64,000 nt of DNA from a virus. Numbering within the stretch: the first letter of the stretch is position 1; each line of letters begins with the position of its first letter. The position numbers and the translations under genes were made by a program. This document shows, in pieces, positions 6,978 to 32,969 of this stretch. The notes beneath the pieces were generated by a model, which worked only from the letters and a program-made list of their open reading frames with translations, was not told the origin of the DNA and did no database searches. The stretch spans positions 32,001 through 96,000 of IMG/VR virus record IMGVR_UViG_3300007609_000008; one strand, given 5' to 3'.

Positions 6978-6990
6978 TTATTTTCTCCTT

Positions 6991-8124: not shown

Positions 8125-8148
8125 TATAATCTCCTAATCAATAATGTA

Positions 8149-11660: not shown

Positions 11661-11692
11661 TGTCGGTCCTTTAAAGGGGGGATATGTCATGT

Positions 11693-11700
11693 TATTTATA
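11693..11700 (-). promoter_or_regulatory. T4-type late promoter TATAAATA
   Basis: Forward TATTTATA at 11693-11700, upstream of the minus-strand module. Confidence 0.72.
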
Positions 11701-11731
11701 AGCTATTGATATTCCTCAATAAAATTATTGC

Positions 11732-11760
11732 TTGACATATCCGCAAAAATCTGTCATAAT
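11732..11760 (+). promoter_or_regulatory. sigma70 promoter heading the radical SAM operon
   Basis: TTGACA 11732-11737, 17 bp, CATAAT 11755-11760 (same CTGTCATAAT as cassette 1). Confidence 0.8.
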
Positions 11761-11790
11761 AGTAGTATATTTACAGTGAGGACTAGTATA

Positions 11791-12099
11791 ATGTATATGA
11801 ATCTTGGCAACTCTTTAAACTATACCACTTCTGGTCGTAAGCGGGCCAAGCTGCCAACCAAGAAGGCTGTCAAGCGTAAGTTCGAACCTTATGTGCCTTC
11901 TAAGACATATATAAGAGAGACACCTGATTATCCTAGTGTCACTACATCGCCTGCTGCTGACTCATGCAGCAAGCCTACGAGAACAGAATACACAGGCACG
12001 CTTGTTAAGGGCATCGCTACTATGCATAAGTCTAATGCAGTGCCTATCATCAACGACCAAGAAGCAAAAGATATTTCAAACATGAGGCGTGGTTCGTGA
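11791..12099 (+). CDS. conserved T4-like hypothetical protein
   Basis: YTGTLVKGIATMHKSNAVPI...AKDISNMRR motif; GAGGA RBS before ATG 11791. Confidence 0.8.
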   Translation: MYMNLGNSLNYTTSGRKRAKLPTKKAVKRKFEPYVPSKTYIRETPDYPSVTTSPAADSCSKPTRTEYTGTLVKGIATMHKSNAVPIINDQEAKDISNMRRGS

Positions 12100-12704
12100 A
12101 AATAGACTTTGATCTAGTATCTAGATGGATGTATGAGATACGAGAAAATTCTAGAATGTTAGATTGCTTCTGGCCGAGTCAGTTGCAAAGCAAGAAGTGG
12201 ATAATTGACACCCTAGTCAAAGAAGCATATTGGCGTGGTAGCATGGGTGACATTGTTATCTTTGGCGGCTGGTATGGCGTTCTTGCACAGATGCTACATC
12301 AAGAATTTGGCGGTAAATATATCAGTGTCGATAATGACCCTTCTTGCAAGGAAGTCTTTGATAGAATCAATACTAGCAACAAAATAGTGTTTAAAGATGG
12401 CTGTATGTCCGAATACGACTACAGTGATTCAATATTTTTAGACATGGTGATAAACACTAGTAGCGAACATGTATCTCAAGAAGTGTATTCTCAATGGTGG
12501 AACAACATTCCTAAAGGTACTAAATATGTAGTACAGGGCAATAATTTTTTTGAGACAGATGAACATGTGAGATGTACTGACACTCTTGAAGAATTTATCA
12601 CTATTAATTATCTAGAAAGCGCAAAGATTAAAGAATCTTTGAATTGCGGCATGAGACCAGATGGTTCTCCTTTCTATCGTTTTATGGCAATAGGCGTTAA
12701 ATAA
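12096..12704 (+). CDS. class I SAM-dependent methyltransferase
   Basis: IVIFGGWYGVL motif I, ISVDND acidic motif, VINTSSEH. Confidence 0.8.
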   Translation: MKIDFDLVSRWMYEIRENSRMLDCFWPSQLQSKKWIIDTLVKEAYWRGSMGDIVIFGGWYGVLAQMLHQEFGGKYISVDNDPSCKEVFDRINTSNKIVFKDGCMSEYDYSDSIFLDMVINTSSEHVSQEVYSQWWNNIPKGTKYVVQGNNFFETDEHVRCTDTLEEFITINYLESAKIKESLNCGMRPDGSPFYRFMAIGVK

Positions 12705-14161
12705 TGAAACTTAAGCACGGTGGTGAATCTAACTCTAATAACATAAGAGTTCTTGAAGACAAGCGAGACTATATTAATAATATTAGTCCTTCTTTTTGTT
12801 CTGCTAAGTGGTTGCAGACTACACTTTATTTACAGAATGGATACAATCATTCTTGTCACCACCCTTCACCTCACAAAATTCCTTTAGAAGAAGTACAGGC
12901 TAATCCTGCTGCCTTGCACAACAGTGCATTTAAAAAAGAACAGAGAGCTAAAATGCTCAAAGGCGAGAGACCAGCCGAGTGTGATTACTGTTGGAATATT
13001 GAAGATTTGGGAAAAGGTTACTTCTCAGATAGACACTACAAAACTTCTGATTATTGGGCATGGCATAGAGTAGATGAACCCGCTGAATCTGATCCGTATG
13101 ATGATATCTTTCCTTCTTACTTAGAGATTTCATTTTCTAACGCTTGTAACTTCGCATGTGCATATTGTACACCCGAAGCAAGCTCTAAATGGATGAAAGA
13201 CATAAAATCACATGGTGCATATCCTGTTGAGTTTGGTAGCCATTCTCTAGATAGTCTTAGAGATTTACAAAAAATTCCTTATAAAACTGATGAACATAAT
13301 CCTTATGTAGAAGCATTTAACAAGTGGTTTCCAGATGCTCTTCCTCATCTCAAGGTTTTCCGCATAACTGGCGGCGAACCTACAATGAGCAAAGACTTTT
13401 GGAAATCATTAGATTATATTTTACAAAATCCGAGAGATGATTTAGAAATTTCCATTAATACAAATCTTGGTGTACCAAAAGAACTAATTGACAGGTTGAT
13501 TGAGTATGCTAAAAGACTTGATACCGCATGTAAAGAGTGTGTTATATTTACAAGTTGCGAGGCATACGGTGAACAAGCAGAATATGTCAGAGACGGTTTA
13601 GACTATGATTATTGGTATGGCAATGTAAAAAGAATTCTAGAAGAGACTGAATGCAAAGTAGTTACTATGACTACTATAAATGCGTTGAGTCTTCCTTCTT
13701 TTACTCGCTGGTTAAAAGACATGATGGATCTCAGAATCGAATATAATCAGTTAGGTTTTATGAACAGAACTCCTATTAGTTTTAACTACTTGAGATTTCC
13801 TCCCCATCTGCAAGTATCAATACTTCCTGATTATATACGAGACAAATATGCTTCCGATATTGAAGAATATGTTTTGTCATGGGGAGAACTCGTTACTCCT
13901 TTGCCGAATGCAAAGTTTTACTTGGAAGAGATTGATCAGGTAAAAAGATTTTGTGACTACATGAGACAGGATACGACATCTGGTCCAAAATACAGAGAAA
14001 ACTTTATGCAGTTTATACAACATTATGATCTTCGCAGAGACAAAGATTTTATTTCTACTTTCCCTGAATATGAAGATTTTTATGAAGAATGGGCAATCGA
14101 GTATGCCCCTAAACTTAAAGCAGATTATATGGATTTGATAGAAGTTATTGAAGTAAAATGA
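12704..14161 (+). CDS. radical SAM protein 1 (subfamily A)
   Basis: CNFACAYC and ITGGEP; N-terminal FCSAKW...SCHHP...CDYCW auxiliary ligands. Confidence 0.92.
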   Translation: MKLKHGGESNSNNIRVLEDKRDYINNISPSFCSAKWLQTTLYLQNGYNHSCHHPSPHKIPLEEVQANPAALHNSAFKKEQRAKMLKGERPAECDYCWNIEDLGKGYFSDRHYKTSDYWAWHRVDEPAESDPYDDIFPSYLEISFSNACNFACAYCTPEASSKWMKDIKSHGAYPVEFGSHSLDSLRDLQKIPYKTDEHNPYVEAFNKWFPDALPHLKVFRITGGEPTMSKDFWKSLDYILQNPRDDLEISINTNLGVPKELIDRLIEYAKRLDTACKECVIFTSCEAYGEQAEYVRDGLDYDYWYGNVKRILEETECKVVTMTTINALSLPSFTRWLKDMMDLRIEYNQLGFMNRTPISFNYLRFPPHLQVSILPDYIRDKYASDIEEYVLSWGELVTPLPNAKFYLEEIDQVKRFCDYMRQDTTSGPKYRENFMQFIQHYDLRRDKDFISTFPEYEDFYEEWAIEYAPKLKADYMDLIEVIEVK

Positions 14162-15588
14162 GCAAAGATTTAATAGACTATCGTAAGAGAGTTCTTGACT
14201 CAAAGTCTCCTTCTTTCTGTGGCGCAAAGTGGTACAATGCTACAACTTGGTTAGGCAGCGGCACTACTGCTTCTTGCCATCACCCAACTGCACATAAAAT
14301 TCCTCTCGTTGAATTGCGAGACGATTACACTGCCATACACAACACAAAACACAAGAAAGCCACTCGCAAGATGATGCAAGAGGGTGAACGTCCTCTTGAG
14401 TGTGAATATTGTTGGCGCATGGAAGACATGGGCAAAGATGCTGTCTCAGACCGTGTTTTTAAATCTCAGATATACAGTGAAGAAGATTTGCAGTCGGCAT
14501 ACGACAAGTCTTGGGAAGATAGTGTAGACTTAAAAACTTTTGAGATTGCATTTGACAGAACTTGTAACCTTGCCTGTTCGTATTGTAACCCTTCGTTCTC
14601 TACTACATGGGCTAGAGACATTAAGAAGTATGGTCCTTATCAAAACTTGTTGTCAGATGGAGCAGGTGCATTTGAGCAAGACGGTTCTTGGACTGAGCCA
14701 TACGGTAGAGACGAAGAGAATCCATACATCGAAGCATTCTGGAAGTGGTGGGACAATGGTCTGTCTGAAAGTCTAGAAGAGCTACGAGTTACTGGTGGTG
14801 AACCTCTTATGTCAGGCAATACTTGGAAACTGTTCGATTGGTTTGAAGAGCAAGATAGCGATATGCGCTTTTCAATTAATAGTAATCTAATTGCCAAAGA
14901 CGAGATTATTGATAAACTAATTGAAAAATCTCATCGTGTTAAAAACTTTGAGCTTTACACTAGCGCAGAGTGTTTTGGTGTACATCAAGAATATTTGAGA
15001 GATGGCTTTGATTGGGAAGTCTGGCACAACAACATGCTAAGATTTGCGAAAGAAGGCAACTACAATAGTCTTAACATTATGATGACTATTACCGGATTGT
15101 CTTTGTTCAGCACTGCCGAGTTTTTAGACGAAGTTTACGAAATGAAGAAACACAGCAAATCAGGACATCATCCTGTTGTAAGTGTGAACATACTTCGCTT
15201 TCCTAGTTTTCAGAACATTCTTACATTACCAAAAGAGATTCGTGAGCATTGTAGACAAGAACTTGCTTTGTGGTTTGAAGAAAATAGAAACAAACCACAG
15301 TGGCTAGAATTCGAACTTGCAAGCATTGAAAGATTGATTGAATATCTTGCAACAGACGAAACACCACACCGTAAAGCGAGTAATCGTGATACTTTATGGC
15401 AGGACATGAAAGCCTTCTACACACAGTATGATCAGAGACGCAACAAAGATATTAATGTGTTTCCAGAAATATTTACTAAATGGTATGACACTATAAATAG
15501 TGGTTACAAGAAAGCTGAACTACACTCAGGTGACAACACTATATTTTTAGACGATGACAGATTAATAGAATTAACGGATATATTATGA
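14158..15588 (+). CDS. radical SAM protein 2 (subfamily A)
   Basis: CNLACSYC and VTGGEP; FCGAKW...SCHHP...CEYCW. Confidence 0.92.
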   Translation: MSKDLIDYRKRVLDSKSPSFCGAKWYNATTWLGSGTTASCHHPTAHKIPLVELRDDYTAIHNTKHKKATRKMMQEGERPLECEYCWRMEDMGKDAVSDRVFKSQIYSEEDLQSAYDKSWEDSVDLKTFEIAFDRTCNLACSYCNPSFSTTWARDIKKYGPYQNLLSDGAGAFEQDGSWTEPYGRDEENPYIEAFWKWWDNGLSESLEELRVTGGEPLMSGNTWKLFDWFEEQDSDMRFSINSNLIAKDEIIDKLIEKSHRVKNFELYTSAECFGVHQEYLRDGFDWEVWHNNMLRFAKEGNYNSLNIMMTITGLSLFSTAEFLDEVYEMKKHSKSGHHPVVSVNILRFPSFQNILTLPKEIREHCRQELALWFEENRNKPQWLEFELASIERLIEYLATDETPHRKASNRDTLWQDMKAFYTQYDQRRNKDINVFPEIFTKWYDTINSGYKKAELHSGDNTIFLDDDRLIELTDIL

Positions 15589-16628
15589 GCAAACATGTAA
15601 TATTAACACTACAAAATCCTCTAGATGAGAGCGACACGTTAGACATAAAATTTAATGTCATGGATACAGATATTGGCAATGATTGGTTTGATTTCGCTTC
15701 TTCTGCTCTTAAAAACAATCCTAGATTAGAAAAAAACTTTTGCTGGTTAGGTTGGCCAGATCCCAATCGTACTGTTGATTACTTAGCAAATCGTTTAGAA
15801 GAGTGTGTTGACGGTATAAATGATTTTGCAGATAACAATGTCGAACTCTGGGAAGGGTATCGTATTGATAAAAACTGGGACGATATTACTAGCGAAGATG
15901 CTTTGAACCAGTTACATCATCATTTTGAGATTCTTATGGGACAAGTGTGGGATGTCGCTAAGTACATGATACGTTCAGATGATGCTACTTCTTACAATAT
16001 CAGACAGCTTAATAATCTAGTACACGAACTTGCAGCAAGAAAAGTAGCAACTACTAACAAAGGTATGACTATTGGAAGTTATTTGAATCCGGTTAGAGAA
16101 CTATTCAAAGAAGATTACTACGACAATTTCTCTCTGAATAGAGATTTTGGAGATGTGTTTCTGCATTACGCTCAGACTGGTAAAACTCCAATAGAAGCAT
16201 TTGAAGACAACGATGATTATGTTTTCAATAACAATATTAATGCTTTGAGATATATGTCCGGCGAATTTAATATTTGGTGGTGTAATTCAATTTCAGAAAG
16301 CGAAAATGCAAAAAGAAAAGAAGAACTGAAAAAATGGCTACAAGATAGAGATGTAATATTTCAAGAACATGATGATTTTTGTTACTATGTTGATCCAGAT
16401 GAAAACAAGCAAGGCATAGGTTGGTTAGTTGTTGCTAAATTGGAAAATCAGTTTGATAGCAATTCTAAACTTGCTGAAGAAATTGCAAAAAGATTAAACA
16501 TATATAGTATGTCGTGTTTTGAAAATGAAGAGTTAGTAAGTTCCTATGTTTGGGATTATAAATGGACTGATTCTGATTATATTGAAAACGAAATTAACTT
16601 TTTAAGTCCACTTTTCCCGAGAGCATAA
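15585..16628 (+). CDS. hypothetical protein, paralogue of 26323-27165
   Basis: LNQLHHHFE, RQLNNLVHEL and YAQTGKTPIEAF motifs. Confidence 0.8.
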   Translation: MSKHVILTLQNPLDESDTLDIKFNVMDTDIGNDWFDFASSALKNNPRLEKNFCWLGWPDPNRTVDYLANRLEECVDGINDFADNNVELWEGYRIDKNWDDITSEDALNQLHHHFEILMGQVWDVAKYMIRSDDATSYNIRQLNNLVHELAARKVATTNKGMTIGSYLNPVRELFKEDYYDNFSLNRDFGDVFLHYAQTGKTPIEAFEDNDDYVFNNNINALRYMSGEFNIWWCNSISESENAKRKEELKKWLQDRDVIFQEHDDFCYYVDPDENKQGIGWLVVAKLENQFDSNSKLAEEIAKRLNIYSMSCFENEELVSSYVWDYKWTDSDYIENEINFLSPLFPRA

Positions 16629-18025
16629 TGACAGTACACAGTTACAATTTATTAGACTTAAAAGATGTCACTGAAGAATTGAATACAGTTGGTAAAGGCT
16701 TCTGTCTTGCCAAGTGGTATCATGTCAGTATGCATCTTCATACCGGACAGAATCATAGCTGCTATCATCCAGCTCCTCACAAGATTCCTCTAGACTTAGC
16801 GAAAGAAGACGCCAATGTTCTTCACAATAGTCCTTTCAAGAAAAAAGTACGCAAAGAAATGCTTGAAGGTGGAAGACCGGCAGAGTGTAGTTACTGCTGG
16901 AATGTTGAAGACCTGGGAGACGATCAAATATCAGATAGAATGCTTCGTTCATCTGAGCCTTGGGCATTGCCATTAATTCAAGAGACTAAAGATATTGATT
17001 GGCAAGCAGATGTTTATCCTCGCTATCTAGAACTAAACTTTAGTAATCGCTGTCAACTGAAATGTAGTTACTGTGCTCCTATGGCAAGCTCTAGTTGGTT
17101 AAAAGAAACTGAGAAGTGGGGCAACTGGCCCTTAGAAAATCGTATCAATGTTAGACAATACGATAATGACACCTTCAAAAACGAAGGCTCCATTTACGGC
17201 GAAGAAGACACAAACCCATACATCAAAATCTTTTGGGAGTGGTTCCCTGATGCATATCCACACTTACACACACTAAGATTTACTGGAGGTGAGCCTTTAC
17301 TTAGTCCTAACGTATTTAAGGTTCTCGACTATGTTGGCGCCAATCCTAAACCAGACTTAGAGTTTGCTGTAAACAGTAACATGATGATTCCAGAAAGAAA
17401 CATTATTCGTTTTATTCAGACAGCAAATGATTTGACTGTGAACAATAAAATTAAAGGATACTCGCTGTTTACTAGTGTTGATACTTGGGGCAAACAAGCA
17501 GAATGGATTCGTAACGGACTCGAAATAAAAAAATATGAAAGTAATCTTCACTACTACATGGAACATTCTGAATCAAAGTATTTCAGTTTTATGGTGACTT
17601 TCTGTTTGCTTGCTATTCCTAACTTTACTGAGTTTTTAGACAAGGTGTTAGAGTTTAGAGAAAAATATAATGTAGATGACAGTTATCAGCGTGTTAATTT
17701 TGATACCCCGTATACTATTGAACCGCCTCATCTGACTGCTCGTATTGCTGATGATTGGATGATCGAACGATTAGAATATACTTGTAATTACTTAGAAGAA
17801 AGAGTAGACGATAGTGATATCAAAATGTTCTCATCTGTTGAACATAAGAAACTGTTACGTGTTCTTGAATGGGTAAAACAAAACAGATATGAGGGCGAAG
17901 AGCTTGCTATGAATAGAAGAGATTTCGCTAAGTTTGTAGACGAGCATGACAGAAGAAGAGGCACAGATTTCCATGCTGCCTTTCCTGAACTAAGAAATTT
18001 TTACGATATGTGTAAGGAGTCATAA
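16628..18025 (+). CDS. radical SAM protein 3 (subfamily A)
   Basis: CQLKCSYC and FTGGEP; FCLAKW...SCYHP...CSYCW. Confidence 0.92.
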   Translation: MTVHSYNLLDLKDVTEELNTVGKGFCLAKWYHVSMHLHTGQNHSCYHPAPHKIPLDLAKEDANVLHNSPFKKKVRKEMLEGGRPAECSYCWNVEDLGDDQISDRMLRSSEPWALPLIQETKDIDWQADVYPRYLELNFSNRCQLKCSYCAPMASSSWLKETEKWGNWPLENRINVRQYDNDTFKNEGSIYGEEDTNPYIKIFWEWFPDAYPHLHTLRFTGGEPLLSPNVFKVLDYVGANPKPDLEFAVNSNMMIPERNIIRFIQTANDLTVNNKIKGYSLFTSVDTWGKQAEWIRNGLEIKKYESNLHYYMEHSESKYFSFMVTFCLLAIPNFTEFLDKVLEFREKYNVDDSYQRVNFDTPYTIEPPHLTARIADDWMIERLEYTCNYLEERVDDSDIKMFSSVEHKKLLRVLEWVKQNRYEGEELAMNRRDFAKFVDEHDRRRGTDFHAAFPELRNFYDMCKES

Positions 18026-18687
18026 TGAATATAGTTATTGTAGGACCTGGAAATGATCCAAAAAGATTTGGAACACACTTTGTCAATCTTTGTGAAAGTA
18101 AAGGACATTCTGTCACTAAGTTTTCATATAGACTAGAAAATGAATCATTTGAAGATGTAGTAGAAAGATATAAAACAGAAATTTCACATCTAGACAGGGT
18201 AGATCTTTTTTTATATAACTCTATTGGTGGATTTTATCCAGGTCAAGCCTTTCACTATCACACCGGTCATGAAGTAGAATACAAGAGATGGCAAGAAGGT
18301 ATTATGATAAATGGTGCAATGCCTCATGCATTATCTCTTAAGACTCTTGAAAAAATGGATGAGCAATCTTCAATAGTTTTCATGACATCTTCTGGCTCAT
18401 ATCTAGTCAATAGAGACAACTACTTAGAGCTTGCTGGCTACTTTGGAACAAAAGGTGCATTAAATCATCTATCAAGAGCACTCGCTGAATGTAATGATGC
18501 TGGTGCTAAAGTTTGTATCATGGCTCCTCATATTCCGTACGATGATGGTGATGATGAAATAACAGAAAGAATAATGAATATACTCACAGAAAAAATGTTA
18601 AATATTTTACCTGAAGACAACGGCAAAGTATTACAATGCTTCCCTCCAGAAGGTAGGCTACATTATTATCCGCATGGTAAACACTAA
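18025..18687 (+). CDS. short-chain dehydrogenase/reductase-like protein
   Basis: N-terminal Rossmann strand IVIVGPG, VFMTSS, and YFGTK (YxxxK). Confidence 0.7.
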   Translation: MNIVIVGPGNDPKRFGTHFVNLCESKGHSVTKFSYRLENESFEDVVERYKTEISHLDRVDLFLYNSIGGFYPGQAFHYHTGHEVEYKRWQEGIMINGAMPHALSLKTLEKMDEQSSIVFMTSSGSYLVNRDNYLELAGYFGTKGALNHLSRALAECNDAGAKVCIMAPHIPYDDGDDEITERIMNILTEKMLNILPEDNGKVLQCFPPEGRLHYYPHGKH

Positions 18688-19949
18688 TGATAAGTAAAGA
18701 CAGCAAGTCGTTTTGTATTTTGCCCTTTGTGCATTCTCATCTAAACACAGAAGGAGATGTTTTCCCTTGTTGTATAAGCTGGGACGCTCAAAGGTCTACT
18801 CAAATAGGTTATTTGAAAGACAATACATTAGAAGAGCTTTTCAATAGTGATAAGATGAAACAGCTTCGTCTCGACCTTGCAGCAGGTAAGAGAAGACCTG
18901 ATTTTTGTGATGCATGTTACAAACGAGAAGACAACGGTTTTGTTAGTGCAAGGCACGGAAACAATTTAGATTATCTTGATGTTGAAGATGATATTGTTGC
19001 TAGTATGCACGAAGACGGATATCTAGAACCAATCATTAAAAGTTGGGACATAAGATTTAGCAATCTGTGCAATCTAAAATGTAGAACATGTGGTAGCGTA
19101 TATAGTACCACTTGGGCACAAGAAGATGCTAAATTTAATGGGTTTTCAGAGTATAAACAGATAAACTCAATACCAGAAGGGGATCCCGATCCTCTAGATA
19201 ATCAATACGATAATGTTGATAAAATTTACTTTGCAGGTGGCGAACCTCTTATCATGCCTGAGCATTTTCGTGTTCTACAGAAAATAATTGATAGTGGCAG
19301 AGCACATAAAGTAAAATTATTGTATAACACAAACATGACAAAATTAAATTATAATAAGCACGATCTTATTGAATACTGGAAAGAATTTAAAGTGGTCGTT
19401 CTTGGTGCCAGCATTGATGCAATGGGTGACAGAGCGGATTACATAAGAAATGGAGTTAAGTGGTCTAATATTGAGAAAAATTTAAAAACGCTTTCTGAAG
19501 CTATTAAAAAGTATCCTAATATTAACATTCACATGGCACCTACAGTAAGTATTCTTAATGTACATTCTCTTGCGGATACTCACAGGTATTTTGTAGAGAA
19601 TGAATACATACCTAGTACTTCTTCAATTGTGTTGAACATGCTTCTAGGCCCCACTTGGTTTGAAATACGCAACTTGCCAAATGTACTAAAAGAAGAAGTA
19701 AAAGAAAAATTAAGAGATCACATATCGTGGTTAATTGAAAAAGATACTCGTCAAGATGTTGTTGAAAGTTTTGAAAGCATTTTAACTTATATTGATAATG
19801 ATGCTTCGGAAACAGACGTAATGAAATTTGTGCAAGAGACGAGACGAGTAGATGCAAGAAGAGATCAAAATTTTCCTGATACTTTTCCTGAGTATGCTGA
19901 ATGGTGGGATTCTTTAGATAAATCTTTAATAAGCGTATCAAATATATGA
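18687..19949 (+). CDS. radical SAM protein 4 (subfamily B, twitch/SPASM-like N-terminus)
   Basis: CNLKCRTC and FAGGEP; FCILPF...PCC...CDACY. Confidence 0.92.
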   Translation: MISKDSKSFCILPFVHSHLNTEGDVFPCCISWDAQRSTQIGYLKDNTLEELFNSDKMKQLRLDLAAGKRRPDFCDACYKREDNGFVSARHGNNLDYLDVEDDIVASMHEDGYLEPIIKSWDIRFSNLCNLKCRTCGSVYSTTWAQEDAKFNGFSEYKQINSIPEGDPDPLDNQYDNVDKIYFAGGEPLIMPEHFRVLQKIIDSGRAHKVKLLYNTNMTKLNYNKHDLIEYWKEFKVVVLGASIDAMGDRADYIRNGVKWSNIEKNLKTLSEAIKKYPNINIHMAPTVSILNVHSLADTHRYFVENEYIPSTSSIVLNMLLGPTWFEIRNLPNVLKEEVKEKLRDHISWLIEKDTRQDVVESFESILTYIDNDASETDVMKFVQETRRVDARRDQNFPDTFPEYAEWWDSLDKSLISVSNI

Positions 19950-21244
19950 GTAATAAAATAGAAGAACCTTCAAAAACTTTTTGTGTCATGCCTTGGATAC
20001 ATTTACACGCTTGGCCAGAAGGAAAGGCTATGTTGTGCTGTAAAGCTCATGGCGGTGAAAACGGAGGAGACGTAGGCGACTTTTCTGTAAATACATATGA
20101 AGAAATAATGAACAGCGACAAGATGAAGCAAATTCGTCTTGATATGCTTGAAGGGAAGACGGTAGAGCAATGTATTGCCTGCACTAATGATGAAAAACTA
20201 GATAAGAAAAGTTTTAGACACGACATGAATAATTCTTATCGTGATTTGATTCCCTCGCTTTTGACAGATGACAAAACTTTATCTGACGGCACACTTACTG
20301 ATCCTAAGATGTATTATATGGATTTCAGATTTAGTAACTTGTGTAATTTAGGATGTCAAACATGTGGAAGTCCTCTAAGTAGTACAATTGCAAATAATCG
20401 CCCAAACAACGATAGCGAAAATGCATTCTTAAAGAAAAAAAATGTTTTGTCTGAAAGAGGCACAATTACTTCTTTTGTTTATGCTCGTCCAGATTTTTTT
20501 GAAGTCGATGTTTTGCCGCATATTGATACAGTAACTAATTTTTACTTTGCTGGTGGTGAACCCTTGATGCATCAAGAGCATCTTGATATTTTAAGATATA
20601 TGGATGACAATAAACTTTACGACAAGCATATAACTTACAGTACAAACTTATCTCTATTGAAATGGAAAGGAACAGATTTTCTTGATATATGGAAAAACTT
20701 TGACAACATTTTATTTTTTTGTAGTATTGACGGTGATAATGAAAGATTAGAATATATTAGAGAATTTTCAAAACATAAAGTAATATTTAATAATTTGAAA
20801 AAACTAATACAATTAAAAAAAGAAAATCCTCTTAAAAGATTTAAAATTTGCATTTGTTATACTCATAGCATTTATAATTGTTATTACACTAAAGAGTTTT
20901 TTGCTGCATTAATAAATGAAGGTGTGATAGAAGATTTAGATCATTTAGAATTTAATTATTCTTATGGCGAAAGAAATCATCCTGCGATTTTGCCAAATTT
21001 TGCAAAAAAAGAACTTATAGAGAAGAGACACGAAGATAGATCATCAGAAGAACTTCAAAAGGCTTTTTCTTTATTTCCTGATTTGAGACATTATTTTGAT
21101 AGCATCGATAATATCTTACATGAAACTATGCCTGCAAATGAGTTTGACAAATTGATCAGCCACGATCTTTTACCAAAAATAGATAAAATAAAAATTGCAC
21201 TTCCTTGGTTACACAGTGTAATTGATAGACACAGGGTATTATAA
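19946..21244 (+). CDS. radical SAM protein 5 (subfamily B)
   Basis: CNLGCQTC and FAGGEP; FCVMPW...LCC...CIAC. Confidence 0.92.
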   Translation: MSNKIEEPSKTFCVMPWIHLHAWPEGKAMLCCKAHGGENGGDVGDFSVNTYEEIMNSDKMKQIRLDMLEGKTVEQCIACTNDEKLDKKSFRHDMNNSYRDLIPSLLTDDKTLSDGTLTDPKMYYMDFRFSNLCNLGCQTCGSPLSSTIANNRPNNDSENAFLKKKNVLSERGTITSFVYARPDFFEVDVLPHIDTVTNFYFAGGEPLMHQEHLDILRYMDDNKLYDKHITYSTNLSLLKWKGTDFLDIWKNFDNILFFCSIDGDNERLEYIREFSKHKVIFNNLKKLIQLKKENPLKRFKICICYTHSIYNCYYTKEFFAALINEGVIEDLDHLEFNYSYGERNHPAILPNFAKKELIEKRHEDRSSEELQKAFSLFPDLRHYFDSIDNILHETMPANEFDKLISHDLLPKIDKIKIALPWLHSVIDRHRVL

Positions 21245-22458
21245 TGACCAGATGCGTCAACACAGATAAATCATTAAGATATACAAACAGTGGAGATGTA
21301 GCTCTTTGCTGTAAGAGTGAGTTATGGTTAAATGACGAGAACGGCAATAAGTGTAATATATCAACACATGATTTTAATGCGCCGCTCAATGGAAAACTAG
21401 CAACTGAAATTCGTAATGACCTGAACAACGGGGTCCGTCATGCAAATTGCAAAAAGTGTTGGGACGAAGAAGATGCAGGAATAGCAAGCAAAAGAATTCT
21501 TGACAACTCCAGAGCAGTAGATTACTGGGGCAAAGATTTTTTGACTGATGGCAAAATTGAGCCAGCCATTGTTGAATTGAACTTAGGAACACTGTGCAAT
21601 CTTAAGTGTAGGATCTGTGGTCCATGGTCAAGCAGTAACTGGGTAAATGAGCACTATGCTGTAAACACTTCGCCCGAAAAGCAAACAAGAGAAAACAAAA
21701 AAAAGTATATGCAGCAGGTGAAGCAATGGCAAGGCAATTTTGAAGATGACAGTCCTACTTGGAAAAACATAGAAGACAGTTTGCCTCATTTGAAACAAAT
21801 TGATATATATGGTGGCGAGCCATTCATGGTAGAAAAGCAATGGGAAGTATTGCAAAAAAGCATAGACAGGGGGTATAGTAAAGACCAGACCCTACACTTT
21901 AACACAAATACTACCATATACTCTGAGAAGCATGTTAAAATTTTGAAACAATTCAAAACAGTTCTTATTAGTCTTTCGTTAGATGACATAGAAGATAGAT
22001 TTGAGTTTCAGCGTCATCCAGCTAAATGGGATCTGGTATCCGAAAATATACAAAAATTTTTACAGTTAAATGCAGATAATGAAAATATAACTGTTGTTGC
22101 TTGTGTAACTATCAATAACTTGAATGTATATTACTTACCTGAAATACTAGAATATTATGATAGTATTGGTTTAGGGTATTATACTAATATTTTACACGGG
22201 CCACCACATTATAATATTAAAAACATTCCGCAAAATTTAAAAGAAGTTATTACTAATAAATATAAAGAAGACATGAAGACTTCTAATGAATATAAGACGG
22301 AAAGACTGCGACAGGTAATGGAATTTATGAATTCATTTATTACTACAAATAATGAATGGACAAATTTTATAGAGTATACTAAAAAGAAAGACGAATACAG
22401 AAAAGAAAACTTCAATGAGGTTTTTCCTGAGTGGAGCGATGTAATTGAAAATAACTAA
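21244..22458 (+). CDS. radical SAM protein 6 (subfamily B)
   Basis: CNLKCRIC and IYGGEP; RCVN...LCC...CKKCW. Confidence 0.92.
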   Translation: MTRCVNTDKSLRYTNSGDVALCCKSELWLNDENGNKCNISTHDFNAPLNGKLATEIRNDLNNGVRHANCKKCWDEEDAGIASKRILDNSRAVDYWGKDFLTDGKIEPAIVELNLGTLCNLKCRICGPWSSSNWVNEHYAVNTSPEKQTRENKKKYMQQVKQWQGNFEDDSPTWKNIEDSLPHLKQIDIYGGEPFMVEKQWEVLQKSIDRGYSKDQTLHFNTNTTIYSEKHVKILKQFKTVLISLSLDDIEDRFEFQRHPAKWDLVSENIQKFLQLNADNENITVVACVTINNLNVYYLPEILEYYDSIGLGYYTNILHGPPHYNIKNIPQNLKEVITNKYKEDMKTSNEYKTERLRQVMEFMNSFITTNNEWTNFIEYTKKKDEYRKENFNEVFPEWSDVIENN

Positions 22459-23053
22459 GCCGTTAGAGGGCGTAAGATATCAAAATACTACAGAAGAAAT
22501 GCCTATTTGGTTTTTTGAAGGAGTAGAACTTCCAGAAATTGATTTTGATTCTTTGAACTGGAAAAATTCACATGGCAGACAGTTATACGAGGACGATAGA
22601 TACAAAAAAAGAGAAGTTGCTGAATGGACTAGTAATAATAAAAATCCGGCAGCGATTGCAATTTTTAATGCAATAGAAAGTGTCGTGACAGAGATAGAAA
22701 AAAATTATCCAGCAGAAAACTTAGAATTGATTTGGCCAATTGATACATGGAAAAGATCCTCCTATGTAGATATCAAAAATGATCATGATGGATTTTGGAT
22801 GGGCGAGCATCTAGATAATAGAAATGTCAAGTGGACATGTATAATGAATTTAGAAGATAATGAAGATTCTACTAGATTTCACTTAGATTATTTTAACGAA
22901 GATGCGGTTGAAGGAAGAGAAAAAGAATTCTACGCACCTACGAAGAAAGGTAGCGGAGTTTTCTATTTCAATCATCATGCTTTATTACATAGCATAGGCC
23001 CGACTTCTGGTAAAGATAGATACATAGCATTTCAGATGAATTTGGTGAAATAA
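22445..23053 (+). CDS. 2OG-Fe(II) oxygenase-like protein
   Basis: EHLDN (HxD), distal HSIG His, then RYIAF Arg; TTG start. Confidence 0.7.
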   Translation: MKITKPLEGVRYQNTTEEMPIWFFEGVELPEIDFDSLNWKNSHGRQLYEDDRYKKREVAEWTSNNKNPAAIAIFNAIESVVTEIEKNYPAENLELIWPIDTWKRSSYVDIKNDHDGFWMGEHLDNRNVKWTCIMNLEDNEDSTRFHLDYFNEDAVEGREKEFYAPTKKGSGVFYFNHHALLHSIGPTSGKDRYIAFQMNLVK

Positions 23054-24279
23054 TGAGCAAGGATACAATCTGCACTCTTCCATGGAATGGCATTCACTTA
23101 AATGCTAATATAGGAGTTTGTTGCAACTCTCTTAGAGCACTCAATTCTAATAACGGAGAACTCAGTACGGCTGAAGACTTGTTGTCCCTAGAAGAAAACA
23201 ATGATTTAATTCAGCTAAAAAAAGATTTGCTCGCAGGCGTAAAAAATCCTATTTGTGATCGATGCTGGAATATGGAACCAAGTAGTTTCAGAAAAACATT
23301 TAACCAGTCTTATCCAGAAACTTATCAGAAAATATTAACAGAATCACCTGAAAGTCTTCCTCTAGAACATATTTTCATTTCAATAGGAAATACTTGCAAT
23401 CTAAATTGTAGAATGTGTGGTCCACATAGCAGCTCTATGATAACAAAAGAGTGGTCTGATCCTGAACGTCCTCATCCAGTTAGACCAAGCAATATAGGAA
23501 AATCTATTATTGCAACAGATTATGATAATACACGCTCTAGTCACTTGAGTAATCCTAATTTTATAGAATATGTAAAAAATAATTACAAAGAGCTAAAAAC
23601 AATTTATATCTATGGTGGAGAGCCATTTATTATAATTGAAGAACATCTAAATTTTTTACAACTTTTAGTTGATTTAGGCGTATCTAAAAATATAAAGTTA
23701 CAATATTCTACTAACGGAACTAACACAACGTTGAGAAGATTTATTGATCTTTGGAAAAATTTTAAAGAAATATCAATCTCTGTCAGTTGCGATGGTATGG
23801 AAGAAGTGTATGATTTTATTAGATGGCCTAGTACTTGGTCAAAGATGAAGAAGAGCTTAGATTATTATTATGATTTTAGTAACAAAAATGATAATATAGC
23901 ATTACATGTTGCTTGCACTCTGCAAATCGCAACTTTAGAGCAAATAAAAAAATTTGAAAATTTTCTAAAAACAACTTATCCAAAATTATCTGGAAGCTAT
24001 TATATACCGGTAGATTATCCTGAAGAGTTTTCTTTAAAATGTGTTCCACTGCCAGTGTTGAAGGAGTATAATAATGATCCAAACTTGTCAGAAAGAGTAC
24101 AATCTATAATAAAACAAACAATTGATTCGTATAATCATGAAGAAAGTTTTAAGTACTTTGACAATTTTTTAAAAACCGCAGAGTGGCAAGACAAATACAG
24201 AAATCAGAATGTATACGATTACTTGCCTCAGATAAAAAAATGGAAAAAGATTCATGAAGACGATCAAGTATCAAAATAA
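23053..24279 (+). CDS. radical SAM protein 7 (subfamily B)
   Basis: CNLNCRMC and IYGGEP; ICTLPW...VCC...CDRCW. Confidence 0.92.
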   Translation: MSKDTICTLPWNGIHLNANIGVCCNSLRALNSNNGELSTAEDLLSLEENNDLIQLKKDLLAGVKNPICDRCWNMEPSSFRKTFNQSYPETYQKILTESPESLPLEHIFISIGNTCNLNCRMCGPHSSSMITKEWSDPERPHPVRPSNIGKSIIATDYDNTRSSHLSNPNFIEYVKNNYKELKTIYIYGGEPFIIIEEHLNFLQLLVDLGVSKNIKLQYSTNGTNTTLRRFIDLWKNFKEISISVSCDGMEEVYDFIRWPSTWSKMKKSLDYYYDFSNKNDNIALHVACTLQIATLEQIKKFENFLKTTYPKLSGSYYIPVDYPEEFSLKCVPLPVLKEYNNDPNLSERVQSIIKQTIDSYNHEESFKYFDNFLKTAEWQDKYRNQNVYDYLPQIKKWKKIHEDDQVSK

Positions 24280-25120
24280 TGTAATCAGTTTTGATAAAAT
24301 TATTGGATTTGGTTGTAGCTATACTGCAGGAACTGAATTAGTAGATCATAGTGTTCTTAATATTAGTGCAGAAAAAAGCGATGAGTTAAAAAGAAAAATG
24401 CCTATAGCAGACTACTATGGTGAAATTTCATCCAAGTTTGCAATTGGAGGGCTGTCTTCAGTTTTCGATCTACAAAAAAAATATGCATACATTGCACATC
24501 TTGCAAAAAAGTTTGAAGTGCCTTGGGAAAATTATGCATATGGCGGAAGTAGTTTAGAATATGTTTGCTGGCTTCTAACAAAAAAGATTTATAACAAAGA
24601 AATTAGAGACACCGATTTAATTGTAATAGGAGTAACTTGTCCCAATAGGGCGTTCTATGTGAAGAACAAAGAAGAAGTTATGCACTTACAACTGTCTAGA
24701 AATGTAAGATGGCCAAATGATGAATTTTTTGAAGATTATCTGATGACTTTTGGCAACGAAGATACTACAATATGGAAATATTTTCATCAATTGCAGTATC
24801 TTTCTTCTTTAAATGAAAAGCTAAATAATCGTATTGTACTGTTGCCTATGTCATTTCCTTGTCATGAATGGGTTAAAATATTATTTAATAGAAGGGATCA
24901 AGATAGAAAAAAGGAAGAACAATATTATATCGATGAATTAAAATCTATTAGGGGTATGATGACTGACGATTTAGAGCCTCTAATGTTAGGCGCATTTGAA
25001 AACCAGACGGTGGGTAGAACAATTGCACCGGAGGATTTACATGGTTATGGTCACTGTAATATGAAAATTCATGAGCAGTATGCAGAAAGATTGTATAAAA
25101 AACTTACAGGAGAATCATAA
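24254..25120 (+). CDS. SGNH/GDSL hydrolase-like protein
   Basis: FGCSYTAG block I, YAYGGSS, and C-terminal YGHC..KIHEQYA. Confidence 0.6.
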   Translation: MKTIKYQNNVISFDKIIGFGCSYTAGTELVDHSVLNISAEKSDELKRKMPIADYYGEISSKFAIGGLSSVFDLQKKYAYIAHLAKKFEVPWENYAYGGSSLEYVCWLLTKKIYNKEIRDTDLIVIGVTCPNRAFYVKNKEEVMHLQLSRNVRWPNDEFFEDYLMTFGNEDTTIWKYFHQLQYLSSLNEKLNNRIVLLPMSFPCHEWVKILFNRRDQDRKKEEQYYIDELKSIRGMMTDDLEPLMLGAFENQTVGRTIAPEDLHGYGHCNMKIHEQYAERLYKKLTGES

Positions 25121-25224
25121 TGATCAAAAAAATAAAAGATTGGTATAAAGACTGGAAAAAGAAAAAAGAAATTAAAAAGAAACTTAAAAAATTAAGAGAA
25201 GAAGACCCTTTTATATATGACTAA
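25120..25224 (+). CDS. 34-aa Lys-rich peptide ending DPFIYD (not in ORF track)
   Basis: MIKKIKDWYKDWKKKKEIKKKLKKLREEDPFIYD*; TAATG overlap upstream, 8-nt overlap downstream. Confidence 0.8.
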   Translation: MIKKIKDWYKDWKKKKEIKKKLKKLREEDPFIYD

Positions 25225-26326
25225 ATTAGCTGATACTTTTTGCATTGTTCCTTGGATAGGCGCAGTAGTTGCTCCCGATAAGGAAAATTTAATTTGCTGT
25301 AGAGCTAATGATAAGCCCACTGAGTATACCTTAGATTCTGTAAATACTGAAACACATAAACATCTGAGAGATGCTTTGGGAAATGGAGTAAAGGATCCTA
25401 TTTGTAAGAGATGTTGGTCTGATGAAAAATCAGGAATAGAAAGTTATAGACAAAGTTATAATAAACACTACAAAGACCTCATTGCATCCGACTCATATTC
25501 TCCCGCTAAACTTAGATTTTTAGAACTGACTCCAAGTAATGTATGTAATCTTGCATGTAGAATGTGTTCTTCTAGATATTCCTCTAAAATTGTTGCAAGG
25601 GAAAAGTATCTTTCTGAACTTAATTTATTTCATGAAAGAGAAAAAGCTCACTTTACAGATTGGAGAAACTTAGATTTATCACACTTAGAAGAGCTGAAAC
25701 TAATGGGCGGTGAGCCTATGTATCTAAAAGAGCATCTTGAAATATTAGAGCACCTAGACACAATTGGTGTACTTGAAAATTTAAATTTGATGGTGATTAC
25801 AAATTGCACTCATTCGATAAATGAAAAATGGAAATATTTTTTAACAAAAGCCAGACGAGTTCATATTGCTATAAGCATTGACGCAGTTGGTAAATTAAAT
25901 GAATATATTAGACAATATTCAAATTGGAATGAAGTTGAAAAAAATCTGCATGAGATAAACGAATTTTCTTTGTCTTTAAAAGATGTTTGGCTCAGTGTAA
26001 ACTGTACAGTTGGAATTTATAATGTAAACAAAACAAAAGAATTTGAAGATTATATGAAAAAACGAAATATTCATTATTATTTTAATCCTTTAGTGTATCC
26101 TAATTATCAAAGTTTGCATTACTTATCTGAGGATCATAAAAATTATCTTTTGAATCATGAGAATGTATCAAAAAAATTACATCATGTTTTGCAAGAAAAA
26201 GAAACACATGTTGTTAGTGCAGAAAAATTCATGGAAGAGACAACCGCAGTCGATAAATTTTATAATAAATATCTAAAGGATTACAACGAGGAGATATATA
26301 ATTTATTATATATGAAAAGATTATGA
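25217..26326 (+). CDS. radical SAM protein 8 (subfamily B)
   Basis: CNLACRMC and LMGGEP; FCIVPW...ICC...CKRCW. Confidence 0.92.
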   Translation: MTKLADTFCIVPWIGAVVAPDKENLICCRANDKPTEYTLDSVNTETHKHLRDALGNGVKDPICKRCWSDEKSGIESYRQSYNKHYKDLIASDSYSPAKLRFLELTPSNVCNLACRMCSSRYSSKIVAREKYLSELNLFHEREKAHFTDWRNLDLSHLEELKLMGGEPMYLKEHLEILEHLDTIGVLENLNLMVITNCTHSINEKWKYFLTKARRVHIAISIDAVGKLNEYIRQYSNWNEVEKNLHEINEFSLSLKDVWLSVNCTVGIYNVNKTKEFEDYMKKRNIHYYFNPLVYPNYQSLHYLSEDHKNYLLNHENVSKKLHHVLQEKETHVVSAEKFMEETTAVDKFYNKYLKDYNEEIYNLLYMKRL

Positions 26327-27165
26327 GAATAACATTTCATAGAGATGACAAAGAAGTAGGGTACATTAATTTTTTGACGTATGATAATTTAGCGTTTAAA
26401 TACTTCAAAGAAAATATTCTGCAAACGACAATGAAAACAAAAACTACTGGTGTTAGTTTTGAAAAATCTAAGCTAGAAATAATAAACAATTATATTGAAT
26501 ATAAAGATGTTATAGAAAAAATAAATCAATATGATTACAGCGAGAAGATAGAAACTGATGTCTCCAAAGACATGAGTTTACAAAAGTTGTTTGACACTCA
26601 TGAATATTTTGAAGTTCTAGGTGAAGTTAGAAGAAAAGGACTTTTACCAGACACACAAGAAATGGACGATATGTTCAACTTAGCGTGTAGGATGAATACT
26701 TTGATTCATAAAATGGAAGGCTCTGCTACTTTAGAAGGCTCTCAATGGTTTCAAGCCCTTTTTGATAAGCCAACTATATACAGAACAGATTTAGATGATG
26801 CTCTATTAGCAGAAGCAGTCGAAGATTTTGAAGAACATAAAATTTATATAGGATACGGCGAAACAGGGAAAAATTTGCATCATTGTTTCCAATTCAATGA
26901 AACTGATTTAGTGCATAGAAAAATGGTACAACCTCAACGCTCAATTTTAACTGAAATATTTCTTGTGTTGAATGGAGAGATGCCTCTAAGATGGGAAAAA
27001 TTTGAGGAGTGGTGTATAGAAAATGATGTAGAATCGTATGGGTATGATTATAAAAATCCAAAATATTATGGCAAGTGGGCAATAGGTGAAATAGAATCAA
27101 AATCTTTTGAGACTCTGACAGCTTTTCCAGTTTATGATGAGGTTAGAATAACTTTTAATGATTAA
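26323..27165 (+). CDS. hypothetical protein, paralogue of 15585-16628
   Basis: LFDTHEYFE, RMNTLIHKME and YGETGKNLHHCF motifs. Confidence 0.8.
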   Translation: MRITFHRDDKEVGYINFLTYDNLAFKYFKENILQTTMKTKTTGVSFEKSKLEIINNYIEYKDVIEKINQYDYSEKIETDVSKDMSLQKLFDTHEYFEVLGEVRRKGLLPDTQEMDDMFNLACRMNTLIHKMEGSATLEGSQWFQALFDKPTIYRTDLDDALLAEAVEDFEEHKIYIGYGETGKNLHHCFQFNETDLVHRKMVQPQRSILTEIFLVLNGEMPLRWEKFEEWCIENDVESYGYDYKNPKYYGKWAIGEIESKSFETLTAFPVYDEVRITFND

Positions 27166-28582
27166 GTGGGGCATATCTGCCGGTACACATGATGCAGCTT
27201 TGACAGTAGTCAAGGACAATAAAATTCTTTTTTCTTCTCATGCAGAAAGATACAGTGGCATAAAAAATGACAAAGACTTGAATGCAGATTTGATTGCAGA
27301 GGCTTTATCATTTGGCACACCTGAAATTATCTTTTGGTATGAGAATCCCTATACAAAGGCAGCTAGAAAAATTTATGCTGGTCAGCCTAATGCTTGGATG
27401 AGTCCTAAGAAGTATCTAAATAAATACGGACTAGGTTGCATACCCATTGAGTATGGCAATCATCACGCTAGTCACATGGCAGCAGGTTACTACACATCTC
27501 CATTTGCGTCTGCTGCTACTCTTGTCATTGATGCAATAGGCGAGTTCAACACTGTGTCTATTTGGAAAGACAAGAAGAAAGTATGGACTGCTAACTATCC
27601 TTCATCACTAGGTCTTTTCTATTCTGCAATGACGGCACGAGTAGGACTAAAGCCTAACGAAGACGAATACATTCTCATGGGCATGGCAGCATACGGTAAT
27701 CCTGATCGATTCTATTCTGACATGAAAGAACTATGTCTTGATGGCACAAACTTTCATCGAGGCTGTTCTTGGTGGAAGCCTGAACTCACAGAAGACGATT
27801 ACTTTGATATAGCAGCAGCAACTCAAAAACTTTACGAGAAATACTTTGTGAGTCTTTTGCGACTCACTAAAGACATGACAGGATCAGATAATCTAGTCTT
27901 CATGGGCGGATGTGCATTGAACTGTCTCGCAAACAGAATCATACCTCAGCACTTTGAAAATCATTGGATCATGCCGAATCCTGGAGACGCAGGATCATCT
28001 CTAGGTGCTATTCTTTCGCATACTAAGCAGAAAGTGAAATTTGACAATGCATTTTTAGGTGAAGAGATAAAAGGCAAATATCCAGTTGACAAAGCACTCA
28101 AAGAACTGTTACAATGTGGTATAGTTGGAGTTGCAAGTGGTCGTGCAGAGTTTGGTCCAAGAGCATTGGGCAATCGTAGTTTATTAGCTGATCCTCGTGG
28201 TCAAGAGATGAAAGACAAAGTGAATGCAATCAAGAAGAGACAAGAGTTTAGACCTTTTGCTCCCGTGATATTGCAATCAGATGTGAATGAGTATTTCAAC
28301 GTCAATAAGAGTTTTTCTTCACCCTACATGCAGCAAATAGTTAGGTGTAAGTATCCTAAAGATTATCCTGCTATTGTTCACGAAGACGGCACAAGTAGAG
28401 TACAAACAGTGACAAAAGAGTCACATCCTGGACTATTTGAGTTACTTACTGAGTGGAAGAAAGAGACAGGATGCCCTATGTTACTCAATACGAGTCTAAA
28501 CATCAAAGGGAAACCTATTGTCAATAATTTACAAGATGCTAAAGATTTTCAGAATAAGTACAAGGTTAAAGTCGTAAGTTAA
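27158..28582 (+). CDS. carbamoyltransferase (NodU/CmcH family)
   Basis: THDAA, AERYSGIKND, HHASHMAAGY, VIDAIGE, GGCALNC, EFGPRALGNRS, RPFAP and LNTSLN motifs. Confidence 0.93.
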   Translation: MIKWGISAGTHDAALTVVKDNKILFSSHAERYSGIKNDKDLNADLIAEALSFGTPEIIFWYENPYTKAARKIYAGQPNAWMSPKKYLNKYGLGCIPIEYGNHHASHMAAGYYTSPFASAATLVIDAIGEFNTVSIWKDKKKVWTANYPSSLGLFYSAMTARVGLKPNEDEYILMGMAAYGNPDRFYSDMKELCLDGTNFHRGCSWWKPELTEDDYFDIAAATQKLYEKYFVSLLRLTKDMTGSDNLVFMGGCALNCLANRIIPQHFENHWIMPNPGDAGSSLGAILSHTKQKVKFDNAFLGEEIKGKYPVDKALKELLQCGIVGVASGRAEFGPRALGNRSLLADPRGQEMKDKVNAIKKRQEFRPFAPVILQSDVNEYFNVNKSFSSPYMQQIVRCKYPKDYPAIVHEDGTSRVQTVTKESHPGLFELLTEWKKETGCPMLLNTSLNIKGKPIVNNLQDAKDFQNKYKVKVVS

Positions 28583-31510: not shown

Positions 31511-31585
31511 GCGCTTGTGGTGAAAGGGATATCACAGGAGCCTTCTAAGCTCTTATTCCAGGTTCGAATCCTGGCAGGCGTACCA
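31511..31585 (+). tRNA. tRNA-Arg (anticodon UCU)
   Basis: Full cloverleaf: acceptor GCGCTTG/CAGGCGT, D stem GTGA/TCAC, anticodon loop CT-TCT-AA, T loop TTCGAAT, encoded CCA. Confidence 0.95.
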
Positions 31586-32950: not shown

Positions 32951-32969
32951 ACAACTAAGGAAGACAATC

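Follow-up and report, generated by a model that had tools for sequence, protein, structure and literature searches.

Twitch-type radical S-adenosylmethionine (SAM) chemistry on a carbohydrate ring is known from the tailoring of aminoglycosides (BtrN, AprD4/AprD3, TobZ), where it is found together with an NAD(P)-dependent reductase and an O-carbamoyltransferase of the TobZ type; AprD4 pairs with the reductase AprD3. Carbamoyltransferases are also part of other described gene sets. The saxitoxin set includes the carbamoyltransferase SxtI, the small proteins SxtJ and SxtK and the GDSL-type protein SxtL (PMC2679770), and in the MetaGPA study the 5-hydroxymethylcytosine carbamoyltransferase of uncultured phages was found to travel with a thymidylate-synthase-like hydroxymethylase (PMC8670742). 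For the NCBIfam family NF033640 (N_Twi_rSAM, twitch domain-containing radical SAM protein) our literature search found no paper giving a reaction or substrate. It likewise found no account of an array of eight N-twitch radical SAM paralogs in a phage, and a search combining radical SAM, carbamoyltransferase and phage yielded nothing relevant. Here, we describe such an array, located in an operon of 17 genes (g1 to g17) in bases 32001–96000 (64,000 nucleotides, in the following called the window) of the 125-kb IMG/VR virus record IMGVR_UViG_3300007609_000008, which is estimated to be 76% complete.

The operon resembles each of these systems in part. With the NF033640 family its eight radical SAM enzymes share a twitch domain with four cysteines that is located N-terminally of the CxxxCxxC core. 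With aminoglycoside tailoring it shares the combination of twitch-type radical SAM enzymes, a putative reductase and an O-carbamoyltransferase, but in BtrN, which is the only sequence match of the twitch domain in the PDB, the twitch is C-terminal and the similarity is weak (E 0.005); moreover the operon is devoid of aminoglycoside core genes and is borne by a phage and not by an actinomycete or Bacillus. As in the saxitoxin set, the O-carbamoyltransferase (g17) is encoded together with a tiny protein (g14, a micropeptide ending in DPFIY) and a GDSL/SGNH-like protein (g13). In contrast with that set a protein resembling SxtJ was not identified, the saxitoxin pathway is otherwise missing and the micropeptide does not match PF19451. 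Its equation with SxtK/DUF5989 (PF19451) was rejected after neither hmmscan with five peptides nor a six-frame search of five records gave a match at E ≤ 10. The MetaGPA enzyme is, like g17, encoded by a phage and has the same Pfam architecture.

The cluster joins two widespread modules, each of which also occurs without the other. We propose that in this virus they form one early-transcribed tailoring pathway. The first module (module A; g2 to g12, g15 and g16) would supply eight non-redundant N-twitch radical SAM enzymes, each taking a different hydrogen atom by means of a 5′-deoxyadenosyl radical, with two proteins of the g5 family, a short-chain dehydrogenase/reductase (SDR), a protein resembling 2-oxoglutarate (2OG)-dependent oxygenases and a methyltransferase-like protein as helpers. 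The second module (module B; g13, g14 and g17) would finish the product by O-carbamoylation dependent on ATP and carbamoyl phosphate, and the DPFIY micropeptide would dock to, or otherwise assist, the carbamoyltransferase and the DUF6071 esterase-like protein and would not be a substrate of the radical SAM enzymes. The operon most likely acts on a sugar-type substrate, a host-supplied carbohydrate-type molecule such as a nucleotide-sugar or a sugar already attached; this view is tentative and held with somewhat less than even confidence.

Radical SAM enzymes and their companion proteins

All eight radical SAM proteins match NF033640 over the full model length with 244–387 bits, i.e., above the curated cut-off of 170 bits. 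The CxxxCxxC and GGEP motifs, which a preliminary description of this DNA had reported for eight proteins, are indeed present in 8/8, with invariant alignment columns C128, C132, C135 and G184–P187. N-terminal to this core four twitch cysteines (C10, C29, C74 and C77) are invariant in the eight proteins, and Pfam SPASM covers residues 10–78 of g8 and 13–80 of g9. Judged by these features all eight enzymes are predicted to be intact family members.

The paralogs fall into subfamilies A and B with three and five genes, respectively (Table 1), and the identity among the eight is only 21–31%. In a tree with relatives each paralog forms a group with the orthologous proteins of other viral contigs, and most of these ortholog groups take in members from contigs binned with bacterial genomes (Haliscomenobacter, Bacteriovoracaceae) as well. 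Since each has an ortholog group of its own in this manner, the paralogs are old and non-redundant. The ratio of nonsynonymous to synonymous substitution rates (dN/dS) of the radical SAM genes is 0.02–0.22. At least 5,960 metagenome proteins of the NF033640 type were found at E ≤ 1e-10 among 8,000 candidates searched, and the family is also present in Bacteroidota, Bdellovibrionota, Paenibacillus and others at 30–37% identity.

The two unknown genes described at the outset as paralogous proved to be related, as g16 matches the g5-family profile with 94.5% probability (E 8e-8). This family comprises 454 representative clusters. The AlphaFold model of g5 has a predicted local distance difference test (pLDDT) score of 94.9; Foldseek found no PDB match for this confident model and the ESM Atlas gave no usable match. 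In a wide VIA structural search g5 was recognized as a cyclophilin-like barrel (130–145 residues, root-mean-square deviation ~3.5 Å) with Z 9–10, which is only modestly above the stated background of that search. A helical bundle is inserted in the modelled barrel at approximately residues 58–159. Residues that are invariant in the family (His, Glu, Asn and Lys) hint at an active or binding site.

Some relatives of g5 occur as fusion proteins. In a single case (P0231) the g5-like domain is fused to an N-twitch radical SAM enzyme, and in at least 11 representatives an N-terminal part of ~410 residues is joined to it. This N-terminal part has no sequence relative among the loci studied and no Pfam annotation. 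In the model of P0136 (pLDDT 84) residues 1–215 match only glycosyltransferases of the GT-A type and nucleotidyltransferases (Z 9–10, 145–175 residues aligned), the top rows being all glycosyl- or nucleotidyl-transferases; among them are LH3, mannosylglycerate synthase, GlmU, ArnC, hyaluronan synthase and KfiA, and the Foldseek probabilities reach 0.99.

The assignment of g7 as SDR holds at the margin, with 27.2 bits against the Pfam adh_short/adh_short_C2 cut-off of 27; the YxxxK motif is visible (YFGTK) and the N-terminal dinucleotide loop is atypical. Of the 2OG-Fe(II) oxygenase suggested for g11 the HxD...H motif (HLD...H) can be seen, but the score of 18.2 bits (E 0.005) stays below the Pfam cut-off of 27. 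In g2, for which a methyltransferase had been suggested, a GGWYG...D(L/N)DP motif is conserved and the best PDB profile matches are methyltransferases, but only at E 0.17–0.22, and no Pfam match was found. Homologs of g2 are present in the related viral contigs L002 and L003 as well as in four other loci with DPFIY (L112, L143, L152 and L171).

Carbamoyltransferase and DPFIY micropeptide

In accordance with its first assignment, g17 has both domains of a carbamoyltransferase above the Pfam cut-offs (Carbam_trans_N 130.8 bits, Carbam_trans_C 182.6 bits) and it matches phrog_1601 with E 2e-103. Its nearest solved relatives in the PDB are NovN, GdmN and TobZ. Against the NodU equivalog NF041651 it reaches 143.7 bits at a cut-off of 1000, i.e., it belongs to the same superfamily and is not a NodU ortholog. 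Residues H102, H106, D125 and D277 are invariant across 23 relatives and may correspond to the His/Asp metal ligands of the Kae1-like domain in TobZ.

Every cluster with a carbamoyltransferase of the g17 type contains an open reading frame (ORF) of 33–42 residues that ends in DPFIY(D/K) and has its own ribosome-binding site, whereas no DPFIY peptide was found in radical SAM arrays without carbamoyltransferase. When the viral collection was scanned for K-DPFIY-x-stop, at least 120 stretches were found; the 80 that were retrieved comprise 66 micropeptides and 14 tails on larger proteins. For co-occurrence those 25 viral micropeptide loci were counted that have 2.5 kb on each side: a carbamoyltransferase lies at most 2.5 kb away in 22/25, a radical SAM gene of the family in only 5/25.

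The tails KDPFIY(K/E) terminate a ~162-residue protein that by eye looks like S-adenosylmethionine decarboxylase, a 70-residue Cys-rich protein and a 289-residue DUF6071 protein. They were found on contigs L103, L106, L107, L117, L128, L137, L144, L157, L159, L163 and L180, and at most of these loci no carbamoyltransferase is seen. In L107 the tail is fused to the DUF6071 protein, which mirrors the adjacency of g13 and g14, and DUF6071 proteins are frequent companions of the carbamoyltransferase–peptide pair. The SGNH-like nature proposed for g13 is based on hhalign matches of 95–96% probability to two clusters whose representatives match PF19547 (DUF6071), but g13 itself has no Pfam match and shows GCS where the DUF6071-type clusters have GDS. 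The KDPFIY tail looks like a portable docking motif. Because of the co-occurrence counts, the peptide-free arrays and the fusion in L107 we group the micropeptide with the carbamoyltransferase and the DUF6071 protein. Our literature search found no paper mentioning the DPFIY motif, and a similarity between the micropeptide and the C-terminus of DUF2400 (E 0.006), which is below the cut-off, was taken as chance.

The small basic peptide had been noticed from the beginning, and its gene is under strong purifying selection (pN 0.07, pS 0.85). Together with the invariant C-terminal DPFIY and the variable N-terminal half this selection would fit a precursor in the manner of PqqA or MftA, whose core would be cross-linked or otherwise altered by the radical SAM enzymes before its carbamoylation, giving a ribosomally synthesized and post-translationally modified peptide (RiPP) or a cofactor-like product. 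Moreover, twitch/SPASM enzymes are often peptide maturases, the radical SAM proteins have weak NCBIfam side-matches to cyclophane-forming and sactipeptide maturases, and a cyclophilin-like barrel is present in g5. Nevertheless, such a peptide-derived product is clearly improbable. The micropeptide follows the carbamoyltransferase and not the radical SAM enzymes (22/25 vs 5/25) and therefore is probably not a RiPP substrate; it is missing from arrays without carbamoyltransferase, its DPFIY end is also fused to whole enzymes (DUF6071, decarboxylase-like, Cys-rich), and no PqqD or RiPP recognition element, peptidase or exporter family was reported when the operon proteins were scanned against Pfam. 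The precursor role was thus reduced to a minor alternative by the co-occurrence counts.

Operon organization, relatives and genomic setting

According to the ORF listing all 17 genes are co-directional on the plus strand, from 11728/11791 to 28582, and all junctions overlap by 1, 4, 8, 14 or 26 nt; the sole apparent gap is occupied by the 34-codon gene g14. The promoter in front of them (Table 1) is the top plus-strand match within the upstream intergenic region, although promoter-like sites are not more numerous in the region than expected by chance. The start of g1 is the ATG behind the GAGGA site and not the ORF start at 11728. When compared with the related viral contigs L002 and L003, all 15 operon genes with an ortholog show dN/dS of 0.02–0.38, with synonymous sites near saturation; g13 and g16 have no ortholog there and were left out. 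This means that the operon genes, including the 34-codon gene, are under purifying selection. The arrangement of one promoter followed by 17 overlapping genes thus stands as first described, and with its overlapping (translationally coupled) genes, the purifying selection and a gene order that recurs in three related viral contigs the reading as one multi-step tailoring operon holds as well. From its layout the operon appears to be one co-transcribed and early-transcribed unit.

Table 1. Predicted features of the operon and its surroundings, with positions in the window
Feature	Position	Strand	Basis or remark
Sigma-70-like early promoter	11732-11760	+	TTGACA, 17 nt, CATAAT, TG extension; intergenic
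g1, 102-residue conserved early protein (phrog_27048)	11791-12099	+	PHROG match; ATG behind GAGGA site
g2, methyltransferase-like Rossmann protein, absent from Pfam	12096-12704	+	motif, weak PDB profile matches
g3, N-twitch radical SAM, subfamily A	12704-14161	+	NF033640 match, motifs, tree
g4, N-twitch radical SAM, subfamily A, most conserved paralog	14158-15588	+	NF033640 match, orthologs, tree
g5, family absent from Pfam	15585-16628	+	cyclophilin-like barrel model; fusions in relatives
g6, N-twitch radical SAM, subfamily A	16628-18025	+	NF033640 match, motifs, tree
g7, short-chain dehydrogenase/reductase	18025-18687	+	marginal Pfam score; YxxxK
g8, N-twitch radical SAM, subfamily B	18687-19949	+	best NF033640 match, 387 bits
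g9, N-twitch radical SAM, subfamily B	19946-21244	+	NF033640 match, motifs, tree
g10, N-twitch radical SAM, subfamily B	21244-22458	+	NF033640 match, motifs, tree
g11, 2OG-Fe(II)-oxygenase-like protein	22445-23053	+	sub-threshold Pfam score; HxD...H
g12, N-twitch radical SAM, subfamily B, in variable part of operon	23053-24279	+	NF033640 match, tree
g13, DUF6071/SGNH-like protein, first gene of carbamoylation set	24254-25120	+	hhalign
g14, 34-residue basic micropeptide ending DPFIYD	25120-25224	+	AGGAG site upstream; large phage family
g15, N-twitch radical SAM, subfamily B; in L003, not in L002/L004	25217-26326	+	NF033640 match, tree
g16, divergent second g5-family member	26323-27165	+	profile comparison
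g17, O-carbamoyltransferase, NodU/CmcH/TobZ type, Kae1-like + YrdC-like domains	27158-28582	+	Pfam, phrog_1601
Late-promoter motif of T4 type (TATAAATA)	15492-15499	+	within end of g4, 93 nt upstream of g5
Minus-strand module	6474-11700	-	TATAAATA motifs at 11693 and 8150
Asn/Thr-rich exported protein	10413-11690		transcribed divergently from operon
tRNA-Arg(tct)	31511-31585		ARAGORN
Permuted two-piece tmRNA	32630-32999	+	ARAGORN; tag peptide ANDEAFSLAA
GalE-like NAD-dependent nucleotide-sugar epimerase/dehydratase	33585-34439	+	5 kb 3′ of operon

In the three related contigs L002, L003 and L004 the order g3-g4-g5-g6-g8-g9-g10 is retained ahead of the carbamoyltransferase, and the genes that follow downstream, PhoH among them, are shared as well. 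Genes for the SDR and the oxygenase-like protein are kept but at other positions, g1 and g2 are present in L002 and L003 and not in L004, and the variable stretch extends from g12 to g16. The divergence from L002 is a mosaic: g4 and g6 are ~93% and g17 within 86–93% identical, g7, g9, g11 and g12 only 44–52%. The synonymous divergence (dS) of PhoH (0.75) is much below that of the operon genes. Because of this mosaic and the lower PhoH value recombination or exchange within the operon is suggested.

Farther relatives contain either or both modules. L017 combines a carbamoyltransferase with eight to nine radical SAM genes, and L006–L016 have three to four family members each without carbamoyltransferase. 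A minimal form is found in the Ralstonia jumbo phage RsoM2USA, where a g4-type enzyme (54% identity) adjoins the carbamoyltransferase (49%), accompanied by three DUF6071 proteins and an unannotated micropeptide. The cultured Vibrio phage K566 (L001) has four distant radical SAM genes (24–31% identity) among unannotated genes at 161.5–168.3 kb. Two contigs of one Haliscomenobacter metagenome-assembled genome (L022 and L024, binned as bacterial) each contain five radical SAM genes of the family along with genes for the carbamoyltransferase, the micropeptide and a g5-like protein; in L022 a DUF6071 gene is present in addition, and nearly all other genes tested in both are without Pfam family. Megablast with the operon in full length found no counterpart among 50,697 phage records. 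The preliminary description had spoken of an unassigned phage cluster of which the substrate could not be read from sequence. For the actual product this holds, but the cluster is not a one-off, and the substrate class can be narrowed somewhat, to carbohydrate-type, by gene content and fusions of the relatives.

The leader gene g1, first listed with the other operon genes, probably has to be taken out of the pathway. Its homologs are found in Delftia phage PhiW-14, Acidovorax phage ACP17, phage C48C1 and Synechococcus phage BUCT-ZZ01. The neighbourhood of the homolog was examined in C48C1 only, where the gene is located at a distance from the carbamoyltransferase and the annotation shows no radical SAM array in its vicinity. 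As this conserved early gene has homologs in four other phages and is also found apart from such clusters, it is probably a bystander, and a role as pathway enzyme was rejected.

The source of the DNA appears to be a distant, uncultured T4-like myovirus, since T4-like PHROG families match the baseplate and tail genes at 46–60 kb and a tail protein of the nearest cultured relatives shows only ~25% identity. The G+C content of this phage is ~36%. Downstream of the operon lie a tRNA gene and a permuted two-piece transfer-messenger RNA (tmRNA) gene; a permuted tmRNA is unusual in a phage and may be a clue to the host group. The copy of TATAAATA within the end of g4 may act as a late promoter inside the operon or have arisen by chance; the remaining plus-strand copies mostly stand ahead of structural genes.

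Upstream, the operon and the gene of the Asn/Thr-rich exported protein have their promoters back to back, and in L003 this neighbour is kept beside the operon (83% identity over the matched part). One may therefore ask whether the operon serves to decorate some protein of the phage or of its host, such as this one, but such protein modification has very little probability. In L002 different genes precede the operon and the whole minus-strand module is missing beside it, the neighbour has a late-type TATAAATA promoter in contrast with the early type of the operon, and nothing links the enzyme families to the Asn/Thr-rich protein. As the adjacency is lost in L002, the Asn/Thr-rich protein itself was rejected as substrate.

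Nature of the substrate

Several weak and indirect clues point to a carbohydrate. A GT2 glycosyltransferase is inserted in L003, and L004 has in addition a UDP-glucose/GDP-mannose dehydrogenase and a B12 radical SAM protein. In L014, the only annotated case of L006–L016, the array adjoins a 746-residue protein with an epimerase/GDP-mannose-dehydratase domain, and around single-copy bacterial homologs GT2 is the commonest neighbour family (5/81 neighbour proteins). The GalE-like epimerase/dehydratase lies 3′ of the operon, and the contig of L002 also carries a homolog of it. The GT-A-type fusions in the g5 family, the similarity of the twitch domain to BtrN and of g17 to NovN, TobZ and GdmN point in the same direction.

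Other observations weigh against a sugar. The clues consist of neighbours, fusions and fold matches with middling Z and are thus indirect, with GT2 making up only 5/81 neighbour proteins. The operon is without own glycosyltransferase or nucleotidyltransferase: no GT2 glycosyltransferase was detected in it or in the 76%-complete record, no sugar-activating enzyme came up when the operon proteins were scanned against Pfam, and BLAST searches of the remaining record were negative with the L003 glycosyltransferase, the L004 dehydrogenase and DUF6071 proteins as queries. A sugar substrate would consequently have to come from the host. The chemistry itself is assumed, because no NF033640 member with a published reaction was found. 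Furthermore the barrel of g5 resembles cyclophilins (Z 9–10), a fold best known for peptide binding, and an early promoter would equally suit modification of DNA or of the nucleotide pool.

The latter is the basis of another explanation, namely hypermodification, in which the carbamoyltransferase would cap the hydroxyl of a modified base on phage DNA or on a deoxynucleoside triphosphate precursor. Besides its sigma-70-like early promoter the operon shares a strand block with PhoH and further perfect sigma-70-like promoters, and primase-like and DnaB-helicase-like proteins are among the commonest neighbours of the carbamoyltransferase–peptide pair in other viral contigs. That a phage-type carbamoyltransferase makes 5-carbamoyloxymethylcytosine was shown experimentally (PMC8670742). 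However, those DNA-modifying enzymes have a thymidylate-synthase-type partner within 3 kb (PMC8670742), whereas the 125-kb record (76% complete) has no gene of the thymidylate synthase family (PF00303) and such a gene is rare in the relatives. Only 1/5 long contigs with the carbamoyltransferase–peptide pair has one; it matches the family model over its full length (E 1e-100) and may be either a hydroxymethylase or a true thymidylate synthase. A DNA glycosyltransferase or base-exchange enzyme was not seen either. The 5-hydroxymethylcytosine route is not supported, as the hydroxymethylase partner is missing in the record and the family occurs in 1/5 long contigs with the pair. As the records are incomplete (76% or less), a missing gene is no proof against modification of DNA or nucleotides, which we regard as improbable.

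If the substrate is a sugar, a more far-reaching view can be considered, although it is rather unlikely in its full extent: N-twitch radical SAM arrays may represent a previously unrecognised route by which large phages and some bacteria rewrite a sugar by successive radical steps, KDPFIY may be a portable docking tag that, free or fused to enzymes (DUF6071, decarboxylase-like, Cys-rich), recruits different tailoring enzymes to one hub, the whole may constitute an enzyme assembly of a new kind encoded by phages, and the product may belong to a new class of carbamoylated, heavily edited glycans or nucleotide-sugars.

The gene set is widespread, considering the size of the radical SAM family and the number of viral stretches with the DPFIY peptide. 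About 17 kb of early genes are maintained under purifying selection, which means that the product must matter during infection. Its identification would add eight new radical SAM reactions in a single step and would assign a function to the carbamoyltransferase annotated in many marine cyanophages and pelagiphages. For experiments the minimal module of RsoM2USA, a cultured Ralstonia phage, is a manageable starting point. Identifying the product would probably also reveal a new phage strategy, be it remodelling of surfaces or of nucleotide-sugars or another modification.

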